Shown: piece after piece, positions 36,597 to 62,755 of the stretch
Position numbering within the stretch: the first letter of the stretch is position 1
Layout of the letters: each line of letters opens with the position of its first letter
Source: an uncultured Nitrospirales bacterium
GTDB taxonomy: Bacteria; Nitrospirota; Nitrospiria; Nitrospirales; NS-4
Direction: 5' to 3'
Assembly: GCA_964542245.1 (NCBI GenBank)
Contig: CAZITU010000004.1
Coordinates: forward strand, 1 to 63,371
Length of the DNA stretch: 63,371 bases
The notes under the pieces: model-generated
The model's input: only the letters and a program-made list of their open reading frames with translations
What the model was told of the DNA's origin: nothing
The model's database searches: none
Made by a program: the position numbers and the translations under genes

Positions 36597-37742
36597 TTAG
36601 GATGCCTGCTCCAGGACACCGTTGCTGATCACTCGATTGCGTCCTTCGCGTTTGGCTTGATAGAGGGCCTGGTCGGCAAAGTTGATCAGGGCTCCCGGTT
36701 CGGCGTCCTGCGTGGGTATCAGGGCAGCCACGCCGGTACTGACGGTCACCCGATCGGTGACCCGGGAGTTAATATGCGGAATATTCAGGGCCTCCACGTT
36801 CGCGCGCATTGATTCGGCCACCATGGCGGCGTTCTTCGCGTCCGTCTTCGGCAAGAGCACCACGAATTCCTCGCCGCCGTATCGGGCCACGACATCCCCG
36901 GGGCGACACACCGTTCCCTTGATCGCGCGCGCCACCCGTTGCAAACAGTGGTCTCCGGCCTGATGACCGTACGTGTCATTGAAGGCTTTGAAATCATCTA
37001 TATCCATCATCAGCACCGCCAGCGGTGCGCCCTCCCGTCTTGTGCGTCCCCACTCCTGCGTAAACAGCTCGTCAAAGCGACGGCGATTGGCGAGCGCCGT
37101 CAACCAGTCCACACCGGATTGATCTTTCAACTCCTCTTCGAGCTGCTTGAGCGCAGTAATCTCCACCAAGAGGCCGGCGAGTCTCTGTTTCTCCTTACGA
37201 ACCGTCTCCGTCGTCGCCCCATAAAAAATTGATGTCATGAGCAGCACCGTGAGGCCGATGAGGCGACCTTCGGACAGCAAGCCGGTTTCCAGAGAATCCA
37301 AGTAGAGAACCGTTCCATAGGCGGCGCACAGGATGACGGAGAGCCCGATCATCTGCTTCAGAGTGGGCGCGAAGGCGGCGATCAGCATGACCAGAAAATA
37401 GGAGATGTAGAGGGCGGACCCGGTGTTGCCCGACAGATAGAGGACGGCGGCCCCAACGGCGGTATCGCCCAGGACCAATGTCACAACGGGCCAGCCGCGC
37501 TCCCACATGCGAGCCGGAAGAAAGAACACGCCGAGGAGAAACAGCATGAGCCCGGAGACGGCAAATTCTTTGACCTCGGCGCTGAGGAGCTTGTCTTCGC
37601 TGAACAGCAACTGATAGCAGAGAACAATAATGACCAGCGTATGGAGCAGCACAAACTGCTTGCGCTGCCCGGTATCCGAGAAAACTGCACTCAACCGGAG
37701 TTCCGCCGACGCAGGATCCACTGTCAAGGCGTGATCAGGCAT
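36597..37742 (-). CDS. Membrane diguanylate cyclase 1
   Basis: About 5-6 TM helices, DIDDFKAFNDTYGHQAGD, RPGD I-site, RYGGEEF. Confidence 0.93.
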   Translation of the reverse strand: MPDHALTVDPASAELRLSAVFSDTGQRKQFVLLHTLVIIVLCYQLLFSEDKLLSAEVKEFAVSGLMLFLLGVFFLPARMWERGWPVVTLVLGDTAVGAAVLYLSGNTGSALYISYFLVMLIAAFAPTLKQMIGLSVILCAAYGTVLYLDSLETGLLSEGRLIGLTVLLMTSIFYGATTETVRKEKQRLAGLLVEITALKQLEEELKDQSGVDWLTALANRRRFDELFTQEWGRTRREGAPLAVLMMDIDDFKAFNDTYGHQAGDHCLQRVARAIKGTVCRPGDVVARYGGEEFVVLLPKTDAKNAAMVAESMRANVEALNIPHINSRVTDRVTVSTGVAALIPTQDAEPGALINFADQALYQAKREGRNRVISNGVLEQAS

Positions 37743-37823: not shown

Positions 37824-38969
37824 TCACAGCGATCCAAGCACCATTACGCTGCTGATCACGCGATTGCGCCCATTGCGCTTGGCTTGATAGAGGGCCTGGT
37901 CGGCAAAGGTGAGCAGGACGAACGGGTCTGTGTCTAGCGTAGGTGTCACGGCGGCAACCCCCAAACTGATGGTCACGTGATCGATGACCCTGGAGTTAAT
38001 ATGCGGAATATTCAGGGCCTCGACTTTAGCACGCATCGTTTCTGCCACCAAGACGGCGTTCTTCGCATCCGTCTTCGGCAAGACCACCACGAATTCCTCG
38101 CCGCCGTATCGGGCCGCAAGATCTCCGTGGCGATTCACCGACGCCCCGATCACGCACGCCACCTGTTGCAAACAATCGTCTCCGGCCTGATGACCGTAAG
38201 TGTCATTAAACTCTTTGAAATGATCAATATCAATCATCAGCAGCGCCAGCGGGGCGGCGTCCCGTCGTGCGCGCCCCCACTCCTGCTGGAACACCTCGTC
38301 GAACCGACGGCGATTGGGGAGCGCCGTCAACCAGTCCGTCACGGATTGCGCTTTCAGCTCCTCTTCTATCCGCTTGAGCGCAGCAATCTGCTCAAAAAGT
38401 CCGGCCTGTTTCTGTCTCTCTTTGCGAACCGTCTCCGTCGTGGCCCCGTAAAAAATCGCCGTCGTGAGAAGCACCGTGAGGCCGAGGAGGCGACCTTCGG
38501 ACAACGAGCCGCTCTGCTGGGAATCCAGGTAGAGAATCACGCCATAGGTGGCGCACAGGATGAGAGAAAGACCGATCATCTGCCTCAGACTGGGAGCGTA
38601 GGCGCCGATCAGCATGACCAGAAAATAGGAGATATATAAGGCGGAACTGGTGTTACCGGAGAGATAGAAAACGGCTGTCGTGATGGCGGTATCCCCCAAG
38701 ACCAATCCCACAACGGGCCAGCCCCGCTCCCAAATCCGAGCCGGAACAAAGAACACGCCGAGCATAAACAGCATGAGCCCGACCACGGCAAGCGGCTTGT
38801 CCTCAGCGCCGAGGAACGAGTCTGGGCTGAACAGTAACTGATAGCAGAGAACAATTACGACGAGGGTCTGGAGCAGCACAAACTGTAGGCGGCTTTTGGG
38901 ATCTACGGAAGGGGTCTTCGGCTCGGATTCCGCAAACGAAGAATCGAGTGCCAAATCCAGATCAGCCAT
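37824..38969 (-). CDS. Membrane diguanylate cyclase 2 (paralogue of DGC1)
   Basis: Same 381-aa length, RHGD I-site, RYGGEEF. Confidence 0.93.
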   Translation of the reverse strand: MADLDLALDSSFAESEPKTPSVDPKSRLQFVLLQTLVVIVLCYQLLFSPDSFLGAEDKPLAVVGLMLFMLGVFFVPARIWERGWPVVGLVLGDTAITTAVFYLSGNTSSALYISYFLVMLIGAYAPSLRQMIGLSLILCATYGVILYLDSQQSGSLSEGRLLGLTVLLTTAIFYGATTETVRKERQKQAGLFEQIAALKRIEEELKAQSVTDWLTALPNRRRFDEVFQQEWGRARRDAAPLALLMIDIDHFKEFNDTYGHQAGDDCLQQVACVIGASVNRHGDLAARYGGEEFVVVLPKTDAKNAVLVAETMRAKVEALNIPHINSRVIDHVTISLGVAAVTPTLDTDPFVLLTFADQALYQAKRNGRNRVISSVMVLGSL

Positions 38970-39319: not shown

Positions 39320-39349
39320 ATTATAGAGAGCGCTCTGGAAGAGTGTCAA
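39320..39349 (-). promoter_or_regulatory. sigma70 promoter of tRNA-Gly
   Basis: TTGACA-N18-TATAAT. The -35 overlaps the stop codon of the upstream gene. Confidence 0.75.
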
Positions 39350-42165
39350 GGCGTGGTGACCGTGAACCGCCGGCGGATGAGTTGTTCGACCGCTGGAAAG
39401 TATCGTTGCGGCAAGTTCTTGAACCGCCGGCGACACTCCAGCACGGCGACCTCGGCGTTGGGAAACTCCCGGGCCGTTTCCATGAGGTTGTCGTAGTATT
39501 CGCGGACCTTTGCTTCGACCCTCGGATCCTTGGCGCCCGCCAGATCGGCCGCGGCGTCTGCAATGAGTCCGTCGCGAGCGACAATCGTCTGGAAGCACAG
39601 CCCCTTGAAGCGCGAGGCTACGGTGCCCCGGCTGATCCCAAGGCGCTTGGCGACCAGGTCAATCTCGAAGCGTGATTCCCGCATGAAATCCAGGAACGCG
39701 CCGTCGCCTGAAATGTCCCGCCCGGACGCACTCGCGGTATTCGCGGCACCGGCAAGGATCACCCGCCCAACGGCCTCGGATGGGGTGCCCAGACCGAGGT
39801 CTGCCTCGGAGATGACCGTGTCGTCAGCGAACACCACCGCGCGCTCGACGGCATTGCGCAGATCGCGCACATTGCCCCGCCACTCCTGCCGGCGGAGCGT
39901 CTGCATGGCTCGCTCCGAGAATCCCAAGATCGGCTTGCCCGCCCGGTCGGCGAACTCCCGGAGGAAGTGCCGGGCCAATCGCTGCACGTCGTCAGGCCGG
40001 TCGCGGAGCGGCGGCAAGACGACCTGGACGACATTCAGGCGGTAATACAGGTCTTCGCGAAACCGTTTCGCGCGAACCTCCTCTTCCAGGTTTCGGTTGG
40101 TCGCGGCGATGATCCGAACGTCAACGTGCCGCGGATCGGCGCCTCCCACGCGATCCACTTCCCCTGATTGGAGAACCCGCAGCAGCTTTGCTTGGAGGTC
40201 GGGCGACAGTTCGCCGATTTCGTCCAGAAACAACGTGCCGCGGTCGGCCTGTTCGAAGCGTCCCTTTTTGTCCGCATGGGCGCCCGTGAAGGCCCCCTTC
40301 ACATGACCGAAGAGCTCGCTTTCAGCCAGGGTTTCGGTGATCGCCGCCATGTTCACCGCCACGAACGGGCCGTGCCCCCGCGGGCTGAGCGCGTGCAGGG
40401 CCCGAGCCACAAGTTCCTTCCCCGTTCCGGTCTCCCCCGTCAGGAGCACCGCACTGGAGGCCGGGGCGACTTTCTTGACCATCTGAAAGACCTCGATCAT
40501 CCGGCGATCTCCGATGACGATGCCGTACGCCTCCGCTTCGGCCCGCACCGCTTCCTCATCCGTACTGAGAATGACCGTGGACGCAGGCGTCATGGGGCGC
40601 ATGTCCTGGAGCCGCTGTTCCAACTCTTCTACCTGCGCGACGAGACGGTCCCGTTCAACGTGAGCCTTCTGCAAGGCTCCGTCCAGATCCCTGGTCTTGG
40701 CCTCCACTTCGTGAACCTTTTCGGCCGTCTCCCGCGCCGCTTCGCGCAACCGGCGCGCCTCGTCAATTGCCACATCGAATTCCCGGTCATGGGACTCCAA
40801 CCGCGCGCGGCTGGCGGTCAGCGCGGACTCCGTGTCGCGAATCTGCCGCTCCAGGCGCGCGAGCCGTGCACGGACACGGGCCTGTCCCTGAACCGGCACT
40901 ACAACGACGGACAGGAGGAAGGCGGTCATCGGGGCCACGATGGGCAGGACCCGGCCGAACAACTGAAAGGCGACGATCGCCAGTCCCAGGTACACAACGT
41001 TGCCGGCCGCCACCCCGGCGAGGGGGAGCTTCCAGAATCGTCCGGACACGACCAGCGCGCCGGCCACCCCCATCAGGACCACCCACAGGGATACTTCGGC
41101 CGTGGACGGGGAATACAGCCACCGGGCCGTCAGGATCGTATTGAGCGCGTTGGCGTGAACGGTGCCTCCCGGAACGGCGAGCTCCAACGGGACCGTCTTG
41201 AGATCAAAGCCGGTCGCCGTGGTCAGGATCAGGACCGTGGCCCCTTTGAAACGCGCCTCGATCTTGCGCCGGCCCTCCGGCGTCGCGGCCAAGCCCAGAA
41301 CCTCCGAAAACCCGTAATGCGGCAAAAACGTCTCGGTCCACTTGCCCGCATAATTGACCAACATCTGTCCTCGCTCATCAATCGGAATCCGGATCTGTTT
41401 GCGCGGATCAGCCTCAACCCCGCTCAGTTGAACGTACCGGCCCGGCACGATCGCGACGTTCTGCGGCTTCACGCCCAGGACATCCATGGCGACCCGGAGA
41501 GAAAAGGCCGGCAGCAGCCGGTCCTTCACACGCACGACCAGCGGGACGCGCCGGATCACGCCGTCCGGATCCCTGTTGGATGCGATATGGCCCACCCCCA
41601 CCGCGGCGGCGGTCAAGTCGGCCGACGACATAAAGAGTTTCCCCGTCACCAGCAGATCTCCGGAATTCCCATCGGCCAACCAGGGCAAGCCGCTTGATCC
41701 GAGAACGCCCGAGAGCAACGATTGCATCTGGGCCAGCTCAGCCTCGGAGACTCCCTCAGACCCTGGCGCAAAGAGCTCCACGCCGATCGGGAGGTACACG
41801 TTCTTAGCTTGGGCGATGACCTTCATGAAACGCAGGTCGCTGACGGACGATGGGACACTGAACACCACGTCATAGGCGATGGCCTTAGCCCCGACGGAGC
41901 TGAGGATTTCCACCATCAAGGCGTGGACGGCCCGGTCCCATGGCCAGCGGCCCAGCGCGGCCACGCTGGTGTCATCGGAGTCGATGAGAATGAGGCGAGA
42001 ATCGGTGGGGATGGGGTTACGGAGGGCAAAGCGAAGGTCGAGGGTCTTATCCTCCCACACCTGGAAGACCCAGGGCCAAAGTCCCGACACCGCCGCCACA
42101 AGCAGACCGCAGGCTGCCCCGAGGGAGAGAAGACGTGTCAGGTCGGGACGTTCGGCGGCGCTCAT
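39346..42165 (-). CDS. CHASE2-TM-coiled-coil-sigma54 activator (one-component bEBP)
   Basis: LGRWPWDR/DVVFS/DPDGVIRRVPL CHASE2 motifs, TM helices, heptad region, GETGTGKE, GAFTGA, LFLDEIGE, FREDLYYRL, C-terminal HTH-like AKRLGISRGTV. Confidence 0.88.
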   Translation of the reverse strand: MSAAERPDLTRLLSLGAACGLLVAAVSGLWPWVFQVWEDKTLDLRFALRNPIPTDSRLILIDSDDTSVAALGRWPWDRAVHALMVEILSSVGAKAIAYDVVFSVPSSVSDLRFMKVIAQAKNVYLPIGVELFAPGSEGVSEAELAQMQSLLSGVLGSSGLPWLADGNSGDLLVTGKLFMSSADLTAAAVGVGHIASNRDPDGVIRRVPLVVRVKDRLLPAFSLRVAMDVLGVKPQNVAIVPGRYVQLSGVEADPRKQIRIPIDERGQMLVNYAGKWTETFLPHYGFSEVLGLAATPEGRRKIEARFKGATVLILTTATGFDLKTVPLELAVPGGTVHANALNTILTARWLYSPSTAEVSLWVVLMGVAGALVVSGRFWKLPLAGVAAGNVVYLGLAIVAFQLFGRVLPIVAPMTAFLLSVVVVPVQGQARVRARLARLERQIRDTESALTASRARLESHDREFDVAIDEARRLREAARETAEKVHEVEAKTRDLDGALQKAHVERDRLVAQVEELEQRLQDMRPMTPASTVILSTDEEAVRAEAEAYGIVIGDRRMIEVFQMVKKVAPASSAVLLTGETGTGKELVARALHALSPRGHGPFVAVNMAAITETLAESELFGHVKGAFTGAHADKKGRFEQADRGTLFLDEIGELSPDLQAKLLRVLQSGEVDRVGGADPRHVDVRIIAATNRNLEEEVRAKRFREDLYYRLNVVQVVLPPLRDRPDDVQRLARHFLREFADRAGKPILGFSERAMQTLRRQEWRGNVRDLRNAVERAVVFADDTVISEADLGLGTPSEAVGRVILAGAANTASASGRDISGDGAFLDFMRESRFEIDLVAKRLGISRGTVASRFKGLCFQTIVARDGLIADAAADLAGAKDPRVEAKVREYYDNLMETAREFPNAEVAVLECRRRFKNLPQRYFPAVEQLIRRRFTVTTP

Positions 42166-44384
42166 TTGGTCTGCATCTCATACACACCGTCCCAGTCTAC
42201 GGGTGGCGGGTTCTTGAGGAACTCCTCGGAGCGCTCGAGGTACAGCACAGACGGCCCGTCTGTCTTATCAAGCGAAAGCGCATAGGTAAAGGCCCCGACG
42301 GCGCCGGACCAATCCCGTTTCTTGTAGGCCGCCAGGCCTTCATTATATGCAGCGACGACCCGGCGCTTGAGTTCCGACAGCTCGCCTTTCCTGGCCATGA
42401 CCTCGTAGACACGCACGCCTTGCTTCTTGCCCTTGACCCGCAAGAGGTCCAACTCGCGCCACTCCACGGCGTCCTTGGCCATCGAATGCGTCCGTTCCGT
42501 CATCATGATCTCGGTATGAAACGGCTTGTTGCCCCCTTCGACCCGGGAAGCCAGATTCACCGCATCACCCATCACCGTGTACTCCATGCGGGCCTCGGAC
42601 CCCATGTTGCCGACCAGCACGACGCCCGTGTTGAGGCCGACCCGCATCGCCAGTTCCGGCCTGCCTTCCTGCTTCCACTTCTCGCGGAGAGGTTGCATGG
42701 CCGCCTGCATATCGAGCGCCGTGTTCACCGCCCGGATCGCGTGGTCCTCCTGCGGCACAGGGTCTCCGAAGAACCACAACATGCCGTCGCCGATGAACTT
42801 GTCCAGCGTGCCCTGGTAGGCGAACCCGATGCGGGTCAATTCGTTGAAATATTCCTGGAGGACCTTCTGCACGACTTCCGGCTCGATGCCTTCGCAGAGG
42901 CTGGTGAACGAGACCACGTCCGTGAACAGGATCGTGAGTTCCTTGCGCTGCCCGCCCATGAGGCGGTCCATGTGGTCGCTCAAAATCATATCCACGACGG
43001 CCGGAGCGAAGTACGGTGCCAGCGCGGCTCTCGTCTTGCGTTTCTCTCGTTCGCCGGCCGCATACCGATAGGTCAACATGCCGGCGCTGGAGAGCACCCC
43101 CGCCAGCACGACGGGGGCGATCGGGAGAATCCGGCCGAACTCGCTGAAGCTCATCCAGGCCCCTTCCACATACCCTAAAATCGCTCCGATCGCCACGAGC
43201 AAGTAGAGGTACGGCCTGAGCCAGAGCGACAGGAGGGCGACCCCGATCCCCACCCCAAGCACGAGCAGAATCACGGTGGTCGGTCCAGACTCCACCAGAA
43301 ACTGCTGGGTCAGGATGGTGTTGATCATATTCATGTGAACACCGTTGAGGGGGTAGGACGGCTCCAGGGGGACGGTACCCGTGTCGCTCGAGCCGGTCGT
43401 AGACACCGCAAACAGCGCCACGGCGCCTTTGAACCCTCGTTCAAGTTCCGGTCGCTTCTCGGGGTCCTTCGCTTCCTCCAGCAGTTCCACGGCGGAGATA
43501 TGGGTGAACGCCTCGTCCCACCTGGCGGCAAAATTCACCGTGAGTCGGCCATGCTCATCTACCGGAATCCGAATATCGCGTCTCGCGGTTTCCCCGGCAA
43601 CGAGGGCGTCGCGGATGATCACAGCGCCGGGTTGGAGACCGACCTTCGATAAGTCGCTCCCGAGCAGATCGAGCGCCACGCGAAACGAGAGGGCGGGAAA
43701 CAGCCGATCCTTCACCCGCACGAGCAATGGATTCCGTCGCACGCCTCCGTCGGAGTCCTTGGTCGCCGAGGCGTGGCCGATACCGCGGACCACCTGTCCG
43801 AAGACCTCCATCGGCAGCAATCGGGTTTTTCCATAATAGAGGCTGAGGGGGAGGGGTGCCGGCTCAGGCACCGTGAAGCGATGCAGGAGATCGTCCGGGT
43901 ACAGCATCTCGCGCCTGGAGCCCTCTTCCTCTTCCGACTCGGCCTCGGGGGCCAGGGTAAGCGAGAGCGCGCTCGCGAGATACACGTTACCCATGGAGGA
44001 CAGCGCCTTGGCGAAGGCTCGGTCGTTTTCGTTCTTTGGGTCCACCTTCGGATTGGTGGGGAAGGGGAAGAAGACGTCAAAGACGACGGCCCGAACGCCG
44101 AGATCGCGCAGGGTCTCGACCACCCGTGCATTGAGCGCCCTGGGCCACGGCCACCGGCCCAGGGCGCTTACGCTGGTGTCATCAACATTGACGTGGACGA
44201 GACGGGGATCCTGGCGGATCGGACCGCGGAGCTGGTGCATCCGGTCGCTGATCCGAAGATCCAGTTCCTTGAGGTAGGTGGGAAGGGCTACATACGCCAG
44301 CCCGATGACGCACGCCGCTGCAACACCGGCGACCAACGGCGGACCATACCGCGCGATGTCGGGTCGCGTTACCCGACCTCCCAT
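42162..44384 (-). CDS. CHASE2 class III adenylate cyclase with C-terminal TPR-like helix pair
   Basis: LGRWPWPR, FTDVVSFT, LDKFIGDG (Lys), YTVMGDAVNLASRVE (Thr). Lys/Thr are the ATP-specifying residues. Confidence 0.92.
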   Translation of the reverse strand: MGGRVTRPDIARYGPPLVAGVAAACVIGLAYVALPTYLKELDLRISDRMHQLRGPIRQDPRLVHVNVDDTSVSALGRWPWPRALNARVVETLRDLGVRAVVFDVFFPFPTNPKVDPKNENDRAFAKALSSMGNVYLASALSLTLAPEAESEEEEGSRREMLYPDDLLHRFTVPEPAPLPLSLYYGKTRLLPMEVFGQVVRGIGHASATKDSDGGVRRNPLLVRVKDRLFPALSFRVALDLLGSDLSKVGLQPGAVIIRDALVAGETARRDIRIPVDEHGRLTVNFAARWDEAFTHISAVELLEEAKDPEKRPELERGFKGAVALFAVSTTGSSDTGTVPLEPSYPLNGVHMNMINTILTQQFLVESGPTTVILLVLGVGIGVALLSLWLRPYLYLLVAIGAILGYVEGAWMSFSEFGRILPIAPVVLAGVLSSAGMLTYRYAAGEREKRKTRAALAPYFAPAVVDMILSDHMDRLMGGQRKELTILFTDVVSFTSLCEGIEPEVVQKVLQEYFNELTRIGFAYQGTLDKFIGDGMLWFFGDPVPQEDHAIRAVNTALDMQAAMQPLREKWKQEGRPELAMRVGLNTGVVLVGNMGSEARMEYTVMGDAVNLASRVEGGNKPFHTEIMMTERTHSMAKDAVEWRELDLLRVKGKKQGVRVYEVMARKGELSELKRRVVAAYNEGLAAYKKRDWSGAVGAFTYALSLDKTDGPSVLYLERSEEFLKNPPPVDWDGVYEMQTK

Positions 44385-44447
44385 ACACCGCCTTTTTCTG
44401 CGTGGATCGCCTCCCGGACACAGTCACGGCAAGCGTCCCGATGACCG

Positions 44448-45542
44448 CTACGGGTTCTTGTCGCCACCACTCTGAGACCGGCCCATCGTTCCCATCGTTT
44501 CGACGGGACGCTCACCCTTCTTACGACCCGGCACACCGATGATGTCAATCGGCTGCTCCGGCTTCTCGGGCGACTTACTCAGACTGCGGGTGCCGACCTT
44601 GGGTTTGGGGAGATCTATCTCCTTCCGCTCCTGGGCGAACCGCTGGTCGTCCTTGTTGGAAGTAGTAATGGCCACCGCCGCTTCGGCCCAGGCCGCAGAT
44701 TTGCTCCTGCCTTTCATGCTGTTTTGGACTTTCGACAGATAGACCGTGGCCTCGCTGACCTGGCCTGTTGGGGTCAGCTCCGCATCGAACGGCACCGTGC
44801 TGGCCAAGGCCTTGATGGTCTCCGCACCGAACGGCCCGGAAATCTTGAACTCCGCCGCGCCTCCGTCATCCCCGAACGAGTAGGTCTGTCCGCCCTTGAT
44901 AGTGGCTTCACGGACGAAAACGTTCGGCACGAGATGAACCACTTTGCCTTCGGCCGTATAGTAGTCCAGCTTCAGGTACGCGTCCTTTTCGGACTCCACG
45001 TATATGATCAGCCGGTCGCCCTCCGCGTACGGCTCGTCCTTCTTGTTCGTCCAGACCTTCAGGTTAAAGCTGGAGGGGGACTGGGCAACGACCGGAGATT
45101 GGGCCGTCTTCGCCACGTCCTTCGAAGCCAGTTGCTGGGCGATCAACTCGGCCACTTCACGGGAATTCGGCGTCGCGGTGATCCACACGCAAATCTGCTT
45201 CGCCTTCACTTCTTGCTTGGTGATCTTCAGATCGCCTAGCCCGACACGGCTGACCGCCGCCACGATGGTATCCTCCATCCCGCTACTGGCAATGCGTTCG
45301 GCATTGTCGGTGTAGGCCTTCATCTTCTGCAGGGCCGCTTCGCGGGCCAGGTTGAGCGCCTTCTTTTGGGCCGCCATGAGGGCCTCGTCGTCGGTTTGTT
45401 GGTAGCAGGCCGAGCCTTGCACAACGTCTGGATTGGCATCCGCGGTAGGCTTACCCTTCGTCTGAGCCAACGCCTGATCGGCCAGGGAACCTGCCAGTAT
45501 CATCATCGCCATCAGGATCCGTGTGAACCGTGCGTATTTCAT
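44448..45542 (-). CDS. Exported DUF4384-like domain protein
   Basis: Signal peptide. Y.EGDRL.IYVE.EKDAYL...GKVVHLVPN and GPFGAETIKALAS resemble DUF4384. Confidence 0.72.
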   Translation of the reverse strand: MKYARFTRILMAMMILAGSLADQALAQTKGKPTADANPDVVQGSACYQQTDDEALMAAQKKALNLAREAALQKMKAYTDNAERIASSGMEDTIVAAVSRVGLGDLKITKQEVKAKQICVWITATPNSREVAELIAQQLASKDVAKTAQSPVVAQSPSSFNLKVWTNKKDEPYAEGDRLIIYVESEKDAYLKLDYYTAEGKVVHLVPNVFVREATIKGGQTYSFGDDGGAAEFKISGPFGAETIKALASTVPFDAELTPTGQVSEATVYLSKVQNSMKGRSKSAAWAEAAVAITTSNKDDQRFAQERKEIDLPKPKVGTRSLSKSPEKPEQPIDIIGVPGRKKGERPVETMGTMGRSQSGGDKNP

Positions 45543-45586
45543 TGGGAACCTCCCCTTTCTCCCTCTCATTACTTTTGATTTTTTCC

Positions 45587-45639
45587 ATTGTCGCTTTAGG
45601 CCAGGGTTTTGTCAATTACGGCGTGCAAGGTCAGTACCA
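45587..45639 (-). promoter_or_regulatory. Tandem sigma54 and sigma70 promoters of the DUF4384-cyclase-bEBP operon
   Basis: TGGTAC-TGACC-TTGCA (GG-N10-GC, 45639-45624) followed by TTGACA-N17-GACAAT (45615-45587). Confidence 0.65.
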
Positions 45640-45899
45640 CTGCCGGCTCCGCGACGATGTCCGCATCCCATCAGGACGAGCGCTGGATAAGGTATGCCAA
45701 ATCAGTCGGTTGCAAGCTCTTCAGGCGCCGAGCGCTGGATCGTCGCCCCTCGGGCTCCTTCCCACCATGCATGGGAACCCATGCGGCCACGCCATTCGGA
45801 TTACCTGCCGGGCTCAGCGTAGTGAGCCGCCCGCATTGACCCGGAATGCAAATTACGCTAGGGTTCGCGCACGCTTTTCATTTCGCCACGAGGTGCCTC

Positions 45900-47498
45900 A
45901 TGACGTCATCCGTTGATCTCTGGAAACGGTTCAAGACCTACCTGAATGTAAACGAGTCCGTCGGCGTGACTGTGGACATCAGCCGCATAAACTTCCAGGA
46001 CTCGTTTTTTGCCGAGATGGAGGCGCCCATCAAAAAAGCCTTTGCCCAGATGACGGCGCTGGAAGCGGGGGCCATCGCCAACCCGGATGAGCATCGCATG
46101 GTAGGACACTACTGGCTCCGCGATTCCAGTCTTGCCCCCGATCCGACGATCCGCCAAGCCATTGACGAGACCATCGCCGCCGTGAAGAAATTCGCGGCGG
46201 ACGTGCACGCCGGGACGATCCTCACCGAGAAGGGCGCGCGGTTCAAAAATCTCATTGTCGTGGGCATCGGGGGCTCAGCGCTGGGGCCGCAGTTCGTCGC
46301 CCACGCCCTCACCTCACCGCGTGATGCCATGAAGGTCTGGTTCATCGACAACACCGACCCGGACGGCATGGACAAAGTGCTGGCCCAAATCGGCGGCGGT
46401 CATATCGGGGACGGCTTGAGTGAAACGCTCACGGTCGTGATCTCGAAGTCGGGCGGCACGAAGGAGACGCGCAACGGTCAACTCGAAATCAAAGCGGCAT
46501 ATACGCGCGCCGGGCTCACCTTCGTGCGCCACGCGGTCGCGGTGACCGGCGCGGCCAGCGAGCTTGACGCAACGGCCAGCGACTGGCTGGCCCGCTTTCC
46601 GATGTGGGACTGGGTCGGCGGTCGCACGTCGGAGTTCTCGGCCGTCGGTCTGCTGCCGGCGGCGCTCCAGGGCTTCGACATTGACGGGATGTTGAAGGGG
46701 GCTCGCGAAATGGACCGCGTCACGCGAGAGGGGGACCCGCGCCGTAACCCGGCCGCCCTCCTGGCGTTGATGTGGTACCACGCGGGAAAAGGCAGGGGCC
46801 AAAAGGACATGGTGGTCCTTCCGTACAAGGATCGCTTCGAGTTGTTCAGCCGCTATCTTCAGCAACTCGTGATGGAATCGCTCGGAAAGGAGAAGGACCT
46901 CAACGGTGCCGTCGTCCACCAGGGCATCGCCGTTTACGGCAACAAGGGTTCGACCGACCAACACGCTTACGTCCAGCAACTCCGCGAGGGCGTGAACAAT
47001 TTCTTCGTCGTGTTCATCGAAGTGCTTAAAGACCGGGCGGGTCGGTCCATTGAGGTCGAACCCGGCGTCACCAGCGGCGACTACCTCAATGGCTTTCTCC
47101 AGGGCACCCGGCGCGCATTGCACGAGAACGGCCGGGAGTCCCTGACGATCACTTTACAGGAGGGCGGGCCCGAGACAGTCGGAAAGCTGATCGCCCTCTT
47201 CGAGCGTGCCGTGGGGTTTTATGCCGCGCTGGTCAATATCAACGCCTACCACCAGCCCGGCGTGGAGGCCGGGAAAAAGGCGGCGGCGGCCGTGATCGCC
47301 CTTCAGCACAAAATCCAGCATTATCTTGCCACGCATAAGGGACAGACCTTCACGGCCGAGCATATCGCAGACGCGATCGGCGCTCTCACCGAGGTAGAAA
47401 CGGTTTTCAAGACCCTCCAGCATCTGGCCGCCAATGAGGACCACGCGGTGAAGCGGACCCCTGGGAAAACTATCTTTGACGCGACGTACGGGATGTAA
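45900..47498 (+). CDS. pgi: Glucose-6-phosphate isomerase
   Basis: [49 protein letters not shown]. Confidence 0.97.
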
Positions 47499-47521: not shown

Positions 47522-48358
47522 TTAGGGATTGGCAGGAAAGATGGGAACGATCGGGGTCGAACCGTCGGTAGGTGGCGGACCGGCCTTACCAAGCGAAACC
47601 GAGAAGCCCGCAGCGTGAGTATGGCCGCCGCCGCCGTACTTCACGGCGATCTTCGCCACGTCGGCGCCGCCCTCTTCCGAACGCAAGCTGAAGTTGCGCC
47701 TCCCGTTGCGATCATGCCAGATCAAGCAGAACGGCCGACCGGGTGAGAGCTGCTCGCCGATCTGGCTGGTCAAAATCGCGCTCTGCACGCACGGCACCGT
47801 TTCTCGCTCGAATCGGACCCACACCGCTTGACGGATTATCTTCTGCACCAACGCGTGTTCGAACCGGAGGATGGCCTGCCCTTCCTGCTCGAGCGTGTCC
47901 TTTTTCAGGGAATCCCAGATGCTGAAATCATAGGGATAGGCATTCAACCCCGCGTTGATCTCGCGGCTGCCGGGGAGCTTCCACGCCCAGAGATCCTTGT
48001 CCTGCACGTATTGCAGGAGCCAGGGCGGCGGCGTGCCGTGAGCCCACTCCCAGGCAAGGACTGCGCCGCTTTTTTCGAGATCGAAATGGACATAAGGTAG
48101 CCCGCCGAGAGCCTCTTGGGCCGTGATATGGTGATCCAATACCTGGATAGCCGCCGCTTCCTTCGCCATTCCGTCCAAGATCGGTCGGGGATAACTGAAG
48201 TCCACGATCACCACCTTCCGTCCGGCGCAACTGACGGGCGGGGGATGTCCGTGGTCGGCAGGGATAAATTCAGCCGCCGGGAACCGCTTCCAGATGGCCC
48301 AGGCGGCGCCGAATCCGTCGGTACACTCGGCGTGGTAGAGGACCAGGTCGGGAACCAT
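47522..48358 (-). CDS. DHH/DHHA1 phosphoesterase
   Basis: CTDGFGAA, IVDFS, LDHH, GGGGHTHAAG. Confidence 0.85.
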   Translation of the reverse strand: MVPDLVLYHAECTDGFGAAWAIWKRFPAAEFIPADHGHPPPVSCAGRKVVIVDFSYPRPILDGMAKEAAAIQVLDHHITAQEALGGLPYVHFDLEKSGAVLAWEWAHGTPPPWLLQYVQDKDLWAWKLPGSREINAGLNAYPYDFSIWDSLKKDTLEQEGQAILRFEHALVQKIIRQAVWVRFERETVPCVQSAILTSQIGEQLSPGRPFCLIWHDRNGRRNFSLRSEEGGADVAKIAVKYGGGGHTHAAGFSVSLGKAGPPPTDGSTPIVPIFPANP

Positions 48359-48452
48359 GGTACCGTAGCATACCATGTCGGTATCGGAGAGAGAAAGCGA
48401 CGGGAATTTACAGCGCCTCCGATGGTATGATACAAGGGTGACGGTGGATATC

Positions 48453-62739: not shown

Positions 62740-62755
62740 AGCAATTCATGTACCA
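62740..62755 (-). promoter_or_regulatory. sigma54 -24/-12 promoter upstream of lpxC
   Basis: TGGTAC-ATGAA-TTGCT (GG-N10-GC), 37 nt upstream of ATG, AT-rich upstream. Confidence 0.65.

Follow-up and report, generated by a model that had tools for sequence, protein, structure and literature searches.

Contig CAZITU010000004.1 from an uncultured Nitrospirales bacterium (63,371 nt; the whole stretch was analysed and is called the window below) carries on its minus strand three co-directional genes (39346-45569), designated here A, B and C. They encode an exported DUF4384 protein, a protein with a CHASE2 and an adenylate cyclase domain, and a protein in which a CHASE2 domain is fused to the AAA+ domain of sigma-54 activators (bacterial enhancer-binding proteins, bEBPs). 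The preliminary description of this DNA, made from its letters alone, had listed the same three genes and an ATGA overlap of the last two. All three open reading frames (ORFs) are indeed present at these positions (Table 1), the domain hits were confirmed, and with B ending at 42162 and C starting at 42165 the two genes overlap by 4 nt. The order A-B-C is kept in ten related Nitrospirales loci (L001-L004, L010-L016; the loci named in this way, as well as P0022/P0023, are the relatives compared), so that the synteny proposed earlier as a check on the operon is found elsewhere. We consider it probable that these genes form a conserved Nitrospirales envelope-signalling operon, the last gene of which codes for a one-component, membrane-integral bEBP that activates its own operon and a gene for an OmpA-like protein.

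The predicted sigma-54 activator C

Besides CHASE2 (E 4e-50), C contains the Sigma54_activat domain (PF00158, E 7e-71) and the lid domain AAA_lid_14. It gave no Response_reg match, in agreement with the receiver-less architecture read earlier, and the NtrC-type NCBIfam models cover only residues about 520-860, all of them below cut-off. Four hydrophobic segments (residues 12-30, 355-373, 382-400 and 406-424) correspond to one N-terminal transmembrane (TM) helix and three TM helices after CHASE2, with a periplasmic domain of about 320 aa between TM1 and the three later ones. This is the full CHASE2 topology with a cytoplasmic output, and B possesses it as well. No relative of the CHASE2 domain was found among the PDB sequences.

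The AAA+ core of C is 45-55% identical to that of other bEBPs, and its matches in PDB are NifA (9qq6, E 1.5e-78), ZraR (1ojl) and Aquifex NtrC1 (1ny5). C keeps Walker A (GETGTGKE), Walker B (LFLDEIGE), the arginine fingers (FREDLYYRL), sensor II (GNVRDL) and, at residues 624-629, the GAFTGA motif, which reads GSFTGA or GAFAGA in relatives; in the alignment, these elements are retained down to relatives at 35% identity.

Between TM4 and the AAA+ domain, a heptad pattern runs through residues 429-545. In the AlphaFold model of C (pLDDT 71), a helix continuous with TM4 (410-479) is followed by a second one (484-522) and by a low-confidence linker (524-534); the linker before the AAA+ domain varies in length and sequence between clades. 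TM4 would thus lead into a helical stretch of about 110 residues, predicted to form a coiled coil (heptad-patterned helix at about 425-522), compared with about 15 residues in bEBPs of the NtrC1/DctD type.

The C-terminal end is also unusual. It is predicted to be an all-helical domain of about 125 aa with seven helices (pLDDT 92.4 when modelled alone) and contains a CRRRFKNLP motif that is invariant across every clade. A Foldseek search against PDB gave nothing below E 2.5, and Fis was the only protein aligned to this domain (about 50 columns, probability 0.25). A weak precomputed match to the Fis-type helix-turn-helix (HTH) family PF02954 exists for the distant member P0022. The HTH proposed earlier for the end of C therefore stands as a Fis-type resemblance; it remains below the Pfam threshold and sits inside a larger domain, which appears to be a new type of DNA-binding end, quite different from that of the NtrC1-type bEBPs.

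Like NtrC1, DctD, ZraR and NifA, C has GAFTGA and arginine fingers, and its predicted target promoters combine a -24/-12 element with an IHF-like site and an upstream activating sequence (UAS); a C-terminal Fis-type HTH would be a further common feature, although the match in C is sub-threshold. Unlike these proteins, it possesses no receiver, GAF, PAS or V4R domain, and its input consists of the extracytoplasmic CHASE2 domain and four TM helices. Known outputs of CHASE2 proteins are cyclases, GGDEF/EAL domains, histidine kinases, Ser/Thr kinases and HD domains; the output of C, a sigma-54 AAA+ activator, falls outside this list, and compared with the CHASE2 cyclases C is a paralogue carrying the activator in place of the cyclase.

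Full-length orthologues of C at 66-78% identity come from Nitrospirales or Nitrospirota metagenome-assembled genomes (MAGs), but the architecture is not restricted to them. A full-length profile was run against 1.84 billion representatives at 50% identity, and the best 150 entries were classed with custom hidden Markov models of the three regions. CHASE2, AAA+ and the family C-terminal domain occur together in 103 of these 150, and CHASE2 and AAA+ only in a further 16; 11 entries, most of which look like truncated gene calls, consist of AAA+ and the C-terminal domain, and the remaining 20 are ordinary bEBPs. The combination of CHASE2 and Sigma54_activat, for which a census had been suggested in the preliminary description, is thus not a singleton: it is represented by at least 119 clusters (clustering at 50% identity), the majority of which share the new seven-helix domain. 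Named members belong to Nitrospirota and to candidate division KSB1 and are labelled only as "sigma 54-interacting transcriptional regulator". By the usual account, sigma-54 activators are soluble, and their activity is governed by phosphorylation, by small ligands or by anti-activators. In a survey of Clostridiales, most input domains of enhancer-binding proteins had no TM regions (PMC6615313). Our literature search turned up no paper in which CHASE2 and sigma-54 are both mentioned, and no description of a transmembrane bEBP. This appears to be an uncharacterised and fairly widespread family of bEBPs in which a transmembrane CHASE2 domain serves as input and the predicted DNA-binding end is new.

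Promoters of the operon and of an OmpA-like gene

Four putative control elements lie upstream of A: a palindrome that is a candidate UAS, an IHF-like site, a sigma-54 -24/-12 element and a sigma-70-type promoter (Table 1). All four are kept in eight orthologous promoters. Both promoters had been recognized in the preliminary description, and both are conserved: the -24/-12 element as TGGTAY-N5-TTGCW in the window, L001 and L010-L016, accompanied by the palindrome and the IHF-like site at classic distances, and the sigma-70 promoter, the GATTGACAAG..GACAAT of which is invariant, in all orthologues, L003 and L004 included. The palindrome is present once in the window, and TGGYAY-N5-TTGCW occurs twice (0.12 expected). 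In L012 the palindrome is replaced by a symmetric variant (GCGTGGCTTCCCACGC). The invariant alignment columns of the IHF-like site are exactly the consensus positions (AA .. TGAT.T), and the N4 spacer varies; we regard the site as a candidate matched to the IHF consensus by our own reading. The operon would then stand behind two tandem promoters, a distal sigma-54 promoter with IHF-like site and dyad enhancer and a proximal one of the sigma-70 type. In relatives, the sigma-70 promoter is 50-70 nt farther from the -12 element than in the window, in which a deletion of about 45-60 nt has put the -12 element 9 nt from the -35 hexamer. This places the start predicted for sigma-54 (about 45613) within the -35 hexamer of the sigma-70 promoter, and competition between the two holoenzymes is therefore probable in the window.

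The arrangement at the operon recurs at a second gene. The pattern GCATGGGNNCCCATGC (the palindrome)-N(100-130)-TGGYAY-N5-TTGC was searched for exactly in genomes (one per species, 596 Gb) and in metagenome contigs. The two collections gave 18 matches, nine at the operon and nine upstream of a gene designated here T, which encodes a 199-aa exported protein of the OmpA family (PF00691, E 1.5e-19). All eight genomic matches are from Nitrospirales, five at the operon and three at T, the latter in three MAGs that also have an operon match, though on a different contig; the ten metagenomic matches comprise four at the operon and six at T, and none of another kind. A fourth MAG (L043) retains the sigma-54 element at T, next to a perfect match to the IHF consensus (AATCAATAAGTTG) and a shortened palindrome. 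No T homologue and no second palindrome were found in the window. T is likely to be the output gene, which the preliminary description missed, and the predicted regulon would consist of the operon itself and T.

The gene upstream of T (368-2104 in L039; also in L035, L123 and L127) encodes a 578-aa Ser/Thr kinase, K, with a TM segment and an extracytoplasmic part that is a DUF4384 domain (E 5e-11). DUF4384 is thus met twice, as the exported protein of the operon and as the ectodomain of a kinase next to the predicted target.

In most relatives, the palindrome lies 10-40 nt past the stop codon of a co-directional gene (a gene designated U at the operon or kinase K at T), and the L012 variant alters both of its arms symmetrically; it could therefore be a transcript hairpin or terminator of the upstream gene rather than a protein-binding enhancer. 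However, no T-run follows the palindrome, its RNA fold is no better than that of shuffled sequences (z +0.40), and the palindrome arms take no part in the minimum-energy structure. Furthermore, in the window and in L013 a gene for phosphoglucose isomerase (pgi) has been inserted between U and the palindrome, which remained on the A side of the insertion and kept its distance to the A promoter, and at promoters of both types palindrome and -24 element are 113-129 nt apart. On the shuffle test and the position after the pgi insertion we rejected the hairpin, which we regard as very improbable.

Independent support for the link between C and these promoters comes from distant relatives, in which the gene following the activator has a promoter of similar design. 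In the P0022/P0023 clade (L005 and L007; 34-36% identity), an OmpA-family gene comes immediately after the activator gene. The short intergenic region contains TGCGGGG/CCCCGCA repeats and, downstream of them, a sigma-54 promoter of canonical sequence (TGGCCTCCCCGTTGC or TGGCGTCCGCGTTGC). In the KSB1 locus L120 (8660-8800), a 17-bp perfect palindrome (TGCGGAAATATTCCGCA) and an extra half-site stand directly after the gene for the CHASE2-bEBP, followed by TGGTAC-N5-TTGTC (GT for GC at -12) and by a gene for a 273-aa exported protein without Pfam match. The half-sites are alike across the clades (TGC..GG / CC..GCA). No clear sigma-54 site could be seen by eye in the AT-rich loci L009 and L121. 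As dyad and sigma-54-type promoter come right after the activator gene in other clades, C is the best candidate for the protein reading the Nitrospirales palindrome.

The sigma-54 positive feedback suggested earlier is plausible, as the same palindrome marks a second promoter, but it is not general: the most divergent orthologues (L003 and L004) have C and the sigma-70 promoter and lack a sigma-54 site before the operon. At L130 (Ga0105164_10000010), a contig from the same metagenome sample as L004 (Ga0105164_10000043), both the palindrome and a canonical TGGCAC-N5-TTGCT (TGGCACATGACTTGCT) are present at the T promoter. If both contigs belong to one organism, this hints that T is the older target and that autoregulation is optional.

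The sigma-54 promoter and the palindrome could also be real but served by another, soluble bEBP, with C regulating unlinked promoters and no autoregulatory loop. The link between C and the palindrome is correlative, Nitrospirales carry further bEBPs (e.g., L027), and C occurs without the site in L003 and L004, and in L012 next to a T homologue without palindrome. Yet all 18 pattern matches are at the operon or at T and are confined to the lineage that has C, the dyad and a sigma-54-type promoter lie right after the activator gene in two other clades (L005 and L007; L120), and no other bEBP is encoded within the window. We consider this explanation unlikely.

The following points nevertheless speak against C as a sigma-54 activator of its own operon and T. 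C is assigned to the palindrome by linkage and co-occurrence, so another bEBP could own it; the operons of L003 and L004 do without a sigma-54 site; and the T homologue adjoining C in L012 has a mis-spaced TGGTAA-N4-TTGC in addition to the missing palindrome. Only one dyad is present, whereas many enhancers of bEBPs contain at least two sites. The HTH_8 match (PF02954) of C is sub-threshold (E 0.0055; 16.8 bits, cut-off 22 bits), neither rpoN nor ihf was found within the window, and the genes adjacent to the activator differ between clades. Finally, the flexible and variable linker is more in keeping with a tether or a cleavage site than with signalling through a rigid helix.

Table 1. Position of the genes and other features discussed in the text (window coordinates).
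Feature	Position	Strand	Remarks
Gene A, exported DUF4384 protein	44448..45542 (ORF to 45569)	minus	PF14326 E 2e-21; DUF4384 domain encoded at 44790-45029
Gene B, CHASE2 / 4 TM / predicted class IIIb adenylate cyclase	42162..44384	minus	740 aa; weak C-terminal TPR
CHASE2 of B	43248-44312	minus	
Cyclase domain of B	42405-42944	minus	
Gene C, predicted membrane-integral sigma-54 activator	39346..42165	minus	939 aa
CHASE2 of C	41056-42099	minus	
TM2-4 of C	40894-41103	minus	
Coiled coil of C (predicted)	40600-40893	minus	
AAA+ of C	39796-40512	minus	
GAFTGA of C	40279-40296	minus	
C-terminal HTH-containing domain of C	39358-39708	minus	
Palindrome (candidate UAS) GCATGGGAACCCATGC	45769..45784		minus-strand reading GCATGGGTTCCCATGC; 16 bp, perfect, 129 nt upstream of -24 element
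IHF-like site AATCAGTCGGTTG (WATCAR-N4-TTR)	45700..45712	plus	between UAS and sigma-54 promoter
Sigma-54 -24/-12 element TGGTACTGACCTTGCA	45624..45639	minus	predicted start near 45613
Sigma-70-type promoter TTGACA-N17-GACAAT	45587..45615	minus	10/12 consensus matches, also found by neutral scan
pgi (phosphoglucose isomerase)	45846-47498	plus	PF00342 E 7e-58
Gene U, remote DHH/DHHA1-type phosphoesterase	47525..48376	minus	first gene of the cluster in relatives; pgi between U and A in the window
GGDEF genes	36597-37742 and 37824-38969	minus	381 aa each
Sigma-70 consensus promoter TTGACA-N18-TATAAT	39320-39349	minus	perfect, 12/12
Second sigma-54-type element TGGTACATGAATTGCT	62740-62755	minus	about 40 nt upstream of likely lpxC ATG (about 62702)

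Partner protein, cyclase and neighbouring genes

The longest ORF of A starts at 45569 and codes for 373 aa; however, the ATG at 45542 (M10) is preceded by GGGGAGG and yields 364 aa, the length of the database gene call. The gene and its DUF4384 domain, both noted earlier, therefore stand, and its start is more likely 45542. The DUF4384 match is full-length (positions 2-81 of 81), and orthologues of A are 59-86% identical. A signal peptide can be read by eye (MKYARFTRILMAMMILAGSLADQALA/QT), and there is no lipobox cysteine. The N-terminal half of A has no Pfam match even at E 1; an assignment as LPP20/FlgT-like was dropped for this reason, though distant relatives give weak LPP20, FlgO or FlgT_N hits.

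Exported proteins of other types take the place of A in other clades. The partner encoded upstream of the activator is a DUF4384 protein in Nitrospirales, DUF4384 together with an LPP20-like protein in L009, a TPR protein in L005-L008, and an exported ankyrin protein together with a TPR protein in L121. Conversely, genes for distant homologues of A adjoin those for a TPR-CHAT protease, a Ser/Thr kinase and a TPR/zf-HC2 protein, which suggests that DUF4384 is a general exported partner of envelope signalling proteins and is not specific for CHASE2. From the viewpoint of the activator, DUF4384 thus appears to be one of several interchangeable exported partners.

B matches CHASE2 (E 9e-44) and Guanylate_cyc (E 3e-26), and its best PDB match is CyaB of P. 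aeruginosa (3r5g, E 5e-43). In the alignment with CyaB, FTDVVSFT, DKFIGDG and YTVMGDAVNLASR (motifs FTD, KFIGDG and T..N..R) retain the metal-binding Asp pair, the substrate-defining Lys/Thr pair typical of class IIIb, and Asn and Arg for the transition state. B is accordingly predicted to be an adenylate cyclase of class IIIb and, with the whole set of catalytic residues kept, should make cAMP. The earlier description of B as a CHASE2 adenylate cyclase is borne out by these residues and by the CyaB match, and so is the paralogy of the two sensors: the CHASE2 domains of B and C are 36% identical (E 1e-58).

CHASE2 cyclases of S. meliloti sense via the outer-membrane protein NsrA (PMC13001267), which sets a precedent for an envelope protein as sensing partner. 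The layout of these cyclases (CyaD1, CyaD2 and CyaK), CHASE2/TM/class III cyclase, is that of B. Their partner is an outer-membrane beta-barrel, whereas the partner here is a periplasmic DUF4384 protein, and no link to Clr/CRP was seen here.

In its strong form, the model of the preliminary description would make B and C a heteromeric CHASE2 receptor for one ligand delivered by A, with coupled cAMP and sigma-54 outputs. The ATGA overlap couples the two genes translationally, the CHASE2 and TM regions are paralogous, and the order A-B-C is conserved. However, two domains that share 36% identity could well differ in their ligands. Moreover, B is not always there: in the close relative L013 (MAG VBOG01000052.1, 7333-7906) it is reduced to two short ORFs matching residues 4-74 and 583-730, next to intact A and C, and it is absent from L009, L005-L008, L120 and L121. 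A common receptor of this kind is thus not what we expect. B rather appears to be dispensable and to lie outside the conserved core of the system. L013 represents a natural loss of the cAMP branch.

Gene U, directly 5' of A and co-directional with it in L001-L004, L010-L012 and L014-L016, codes for about 290 aa and is 84% identical (tblastn) to U of L001 (3456-4328). It gave matches to DHHA1 (E 2.7e-5), DHH (E 0.009) and PDB entry 4ls9 (E 1.4e-3). Only in the window and in L013 does pgi (76% identical in L013) lie between U and A. The ancestral unit therefore seems to include U as a fourth, upstream gene that was split off by pgi in the window; a mobile-element origin of the intervening gene was ruled out, as it encodes phosphoglucose isomerase. 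A role of U in (cyclic-)nucleotide turnover beside the cyclase gene is conceivable.

Downstream of C, two tandem GGDEF paralogues (mutual identity 71%) stand between C and the conserved HEM4-MFP-RND genes in the window only; in L001, the HEM4-MFP-RND genes directly follow C. The N-terminal 200 aa of both paralogues have no Pfam match. A sigma-70 consensus promoter overlaps the stop codon of C and faces the GGDEF genes. At the other end of the window, a second sigma-54-type element precedes lpxC (PF03331, E 8e-101), and no palindrome is found near it. The window sequence is matched by metagenome runs from hot springs and groundwater, all of them DNA runs.

Possible mode of action and implications

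The inactive dimers of NtrC1 and DctD are held together by a coiled-coil segment in front of the AAA+ domain. By analogy, C may be kept inactive as a coiled-coil dimer that binds the dyad GCATGGG-N2-CCCATGC through its C-terminal domain. A change of state of the periplasmic CHASE2 domain, possibly brought about through the exported DUF4384 partner, would allow the dimers to assemble into the active AAA+ ring; with the DNA bent by IHF, the ring would then remodel the closed sigma-54 holoenzyme complex at both promoters. The output would be more of the operon's own products and more of the peptidoglycan-associated OmpA-like protein. The sigma-70 promoter would provide a basal level and the sigma-54 promoter positive feedback, and B, as a lineage-specific CHASE2 paralogue, may add a cAMP output.

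This scheme has a counterpart in the PspF-PspA-PspBC system, in which the status of the envelope controls a receiver-less bEBP that is self-regulated through a sigma-54 promoter with an IHF site. PspF is soluble and restrained by PspA, whereas sensor and activator are covalently fused in the membrane in C. ToxR, CadC and TcpP combine a periplasmic sensor and a cytoplasmic DNA-binding activator in one polypeptide without phosphorelay, often with an exported or membrane accessory protein. However, these proteins possess only one TM helix, with an OmpR-type winged helix at the N-terminus and the periplasmic sensor at the C-terminus, and they recruit the sigma-70 holoenzyme, whereas C has four TM helices and a putative C-terminal HTH and would have to form an ATP-hydrolysing ring to act on sigma-54. 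C has no Trans_reg_C match and the opposite orientation, so it is not a member of this group, though it may work alike.

C may act either within the membrane, as ToxR and CadC do and in a geometry like that of the FtsH hexamer, or after cleavage in the flexible linker. In the latter case, C would be a membrane-held pro-activator from which signal-triggered proteolysis in the linker or coiled coil frees a soluble AAA+/HTH bEBP. Regulated cleavage of membrane-held regulators is established biology, residues 524-534 with their low model confidence and variability would offer a place for it, and the 11 census entries reduced to AAA+ and C-terminal domains (most of them apparent truncated gene calls) resemble the product. 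On the other hand, no protease gene is conserved in the neighbourhood of the compared loci and no cleavage motif was identified, and FtsH, ToxR and CadC show that release is not required. Release by proteolysis is thus possible, if somewhat doubtful.

FtsH also illustrates that an AAA+ ring can assemble from TM-anchored subunits with periplasmic domains, although it is a protease of a different AAA+ clade that, unlike C, neither binds DNA nor contacts sigma-54. We tentatively propose, as an attractive but far from certain extension, that CHASE2-bEBPs are a widespread class of one-component sigma-54 activators that span the membrane and stay in it while active: the state of a periplasmic ligand, sensed with the help of an exported partner (DUF4384, TPR or ankyrin), would govern the assembly of the membrane-anchored ring, the ring would capture IHF-bent enhancer DNA through the new type of DNA-binding domain, and OmpA-like proteins would be switched on. 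If true, this would be a direct route from the periplasm to sigma-54 without kinase, second messenger or anti-activator. It raises the mechanistic question of how a ring ATPase anchored by 24 TM helices reaches enhancer DNA.

Sigma-54 has been proposed to govern the cell exterior (PMC3162934), and the OmpA-like output as well as the sigma-54-like site before lpxC fit this proposal. A family of at least 119 clusters linking periplasmic CHASE2 to the sigma-54 AAA+ motor would add an envelope-to-transcription signalling route. The predicted regulon, the operon itself and the OmpA-like protein, is small and defined and could therefore be tested directly in a heterologous host. For Nitrospirales, a group with few genetic tools, this provides a predicted envelope-response circuit.

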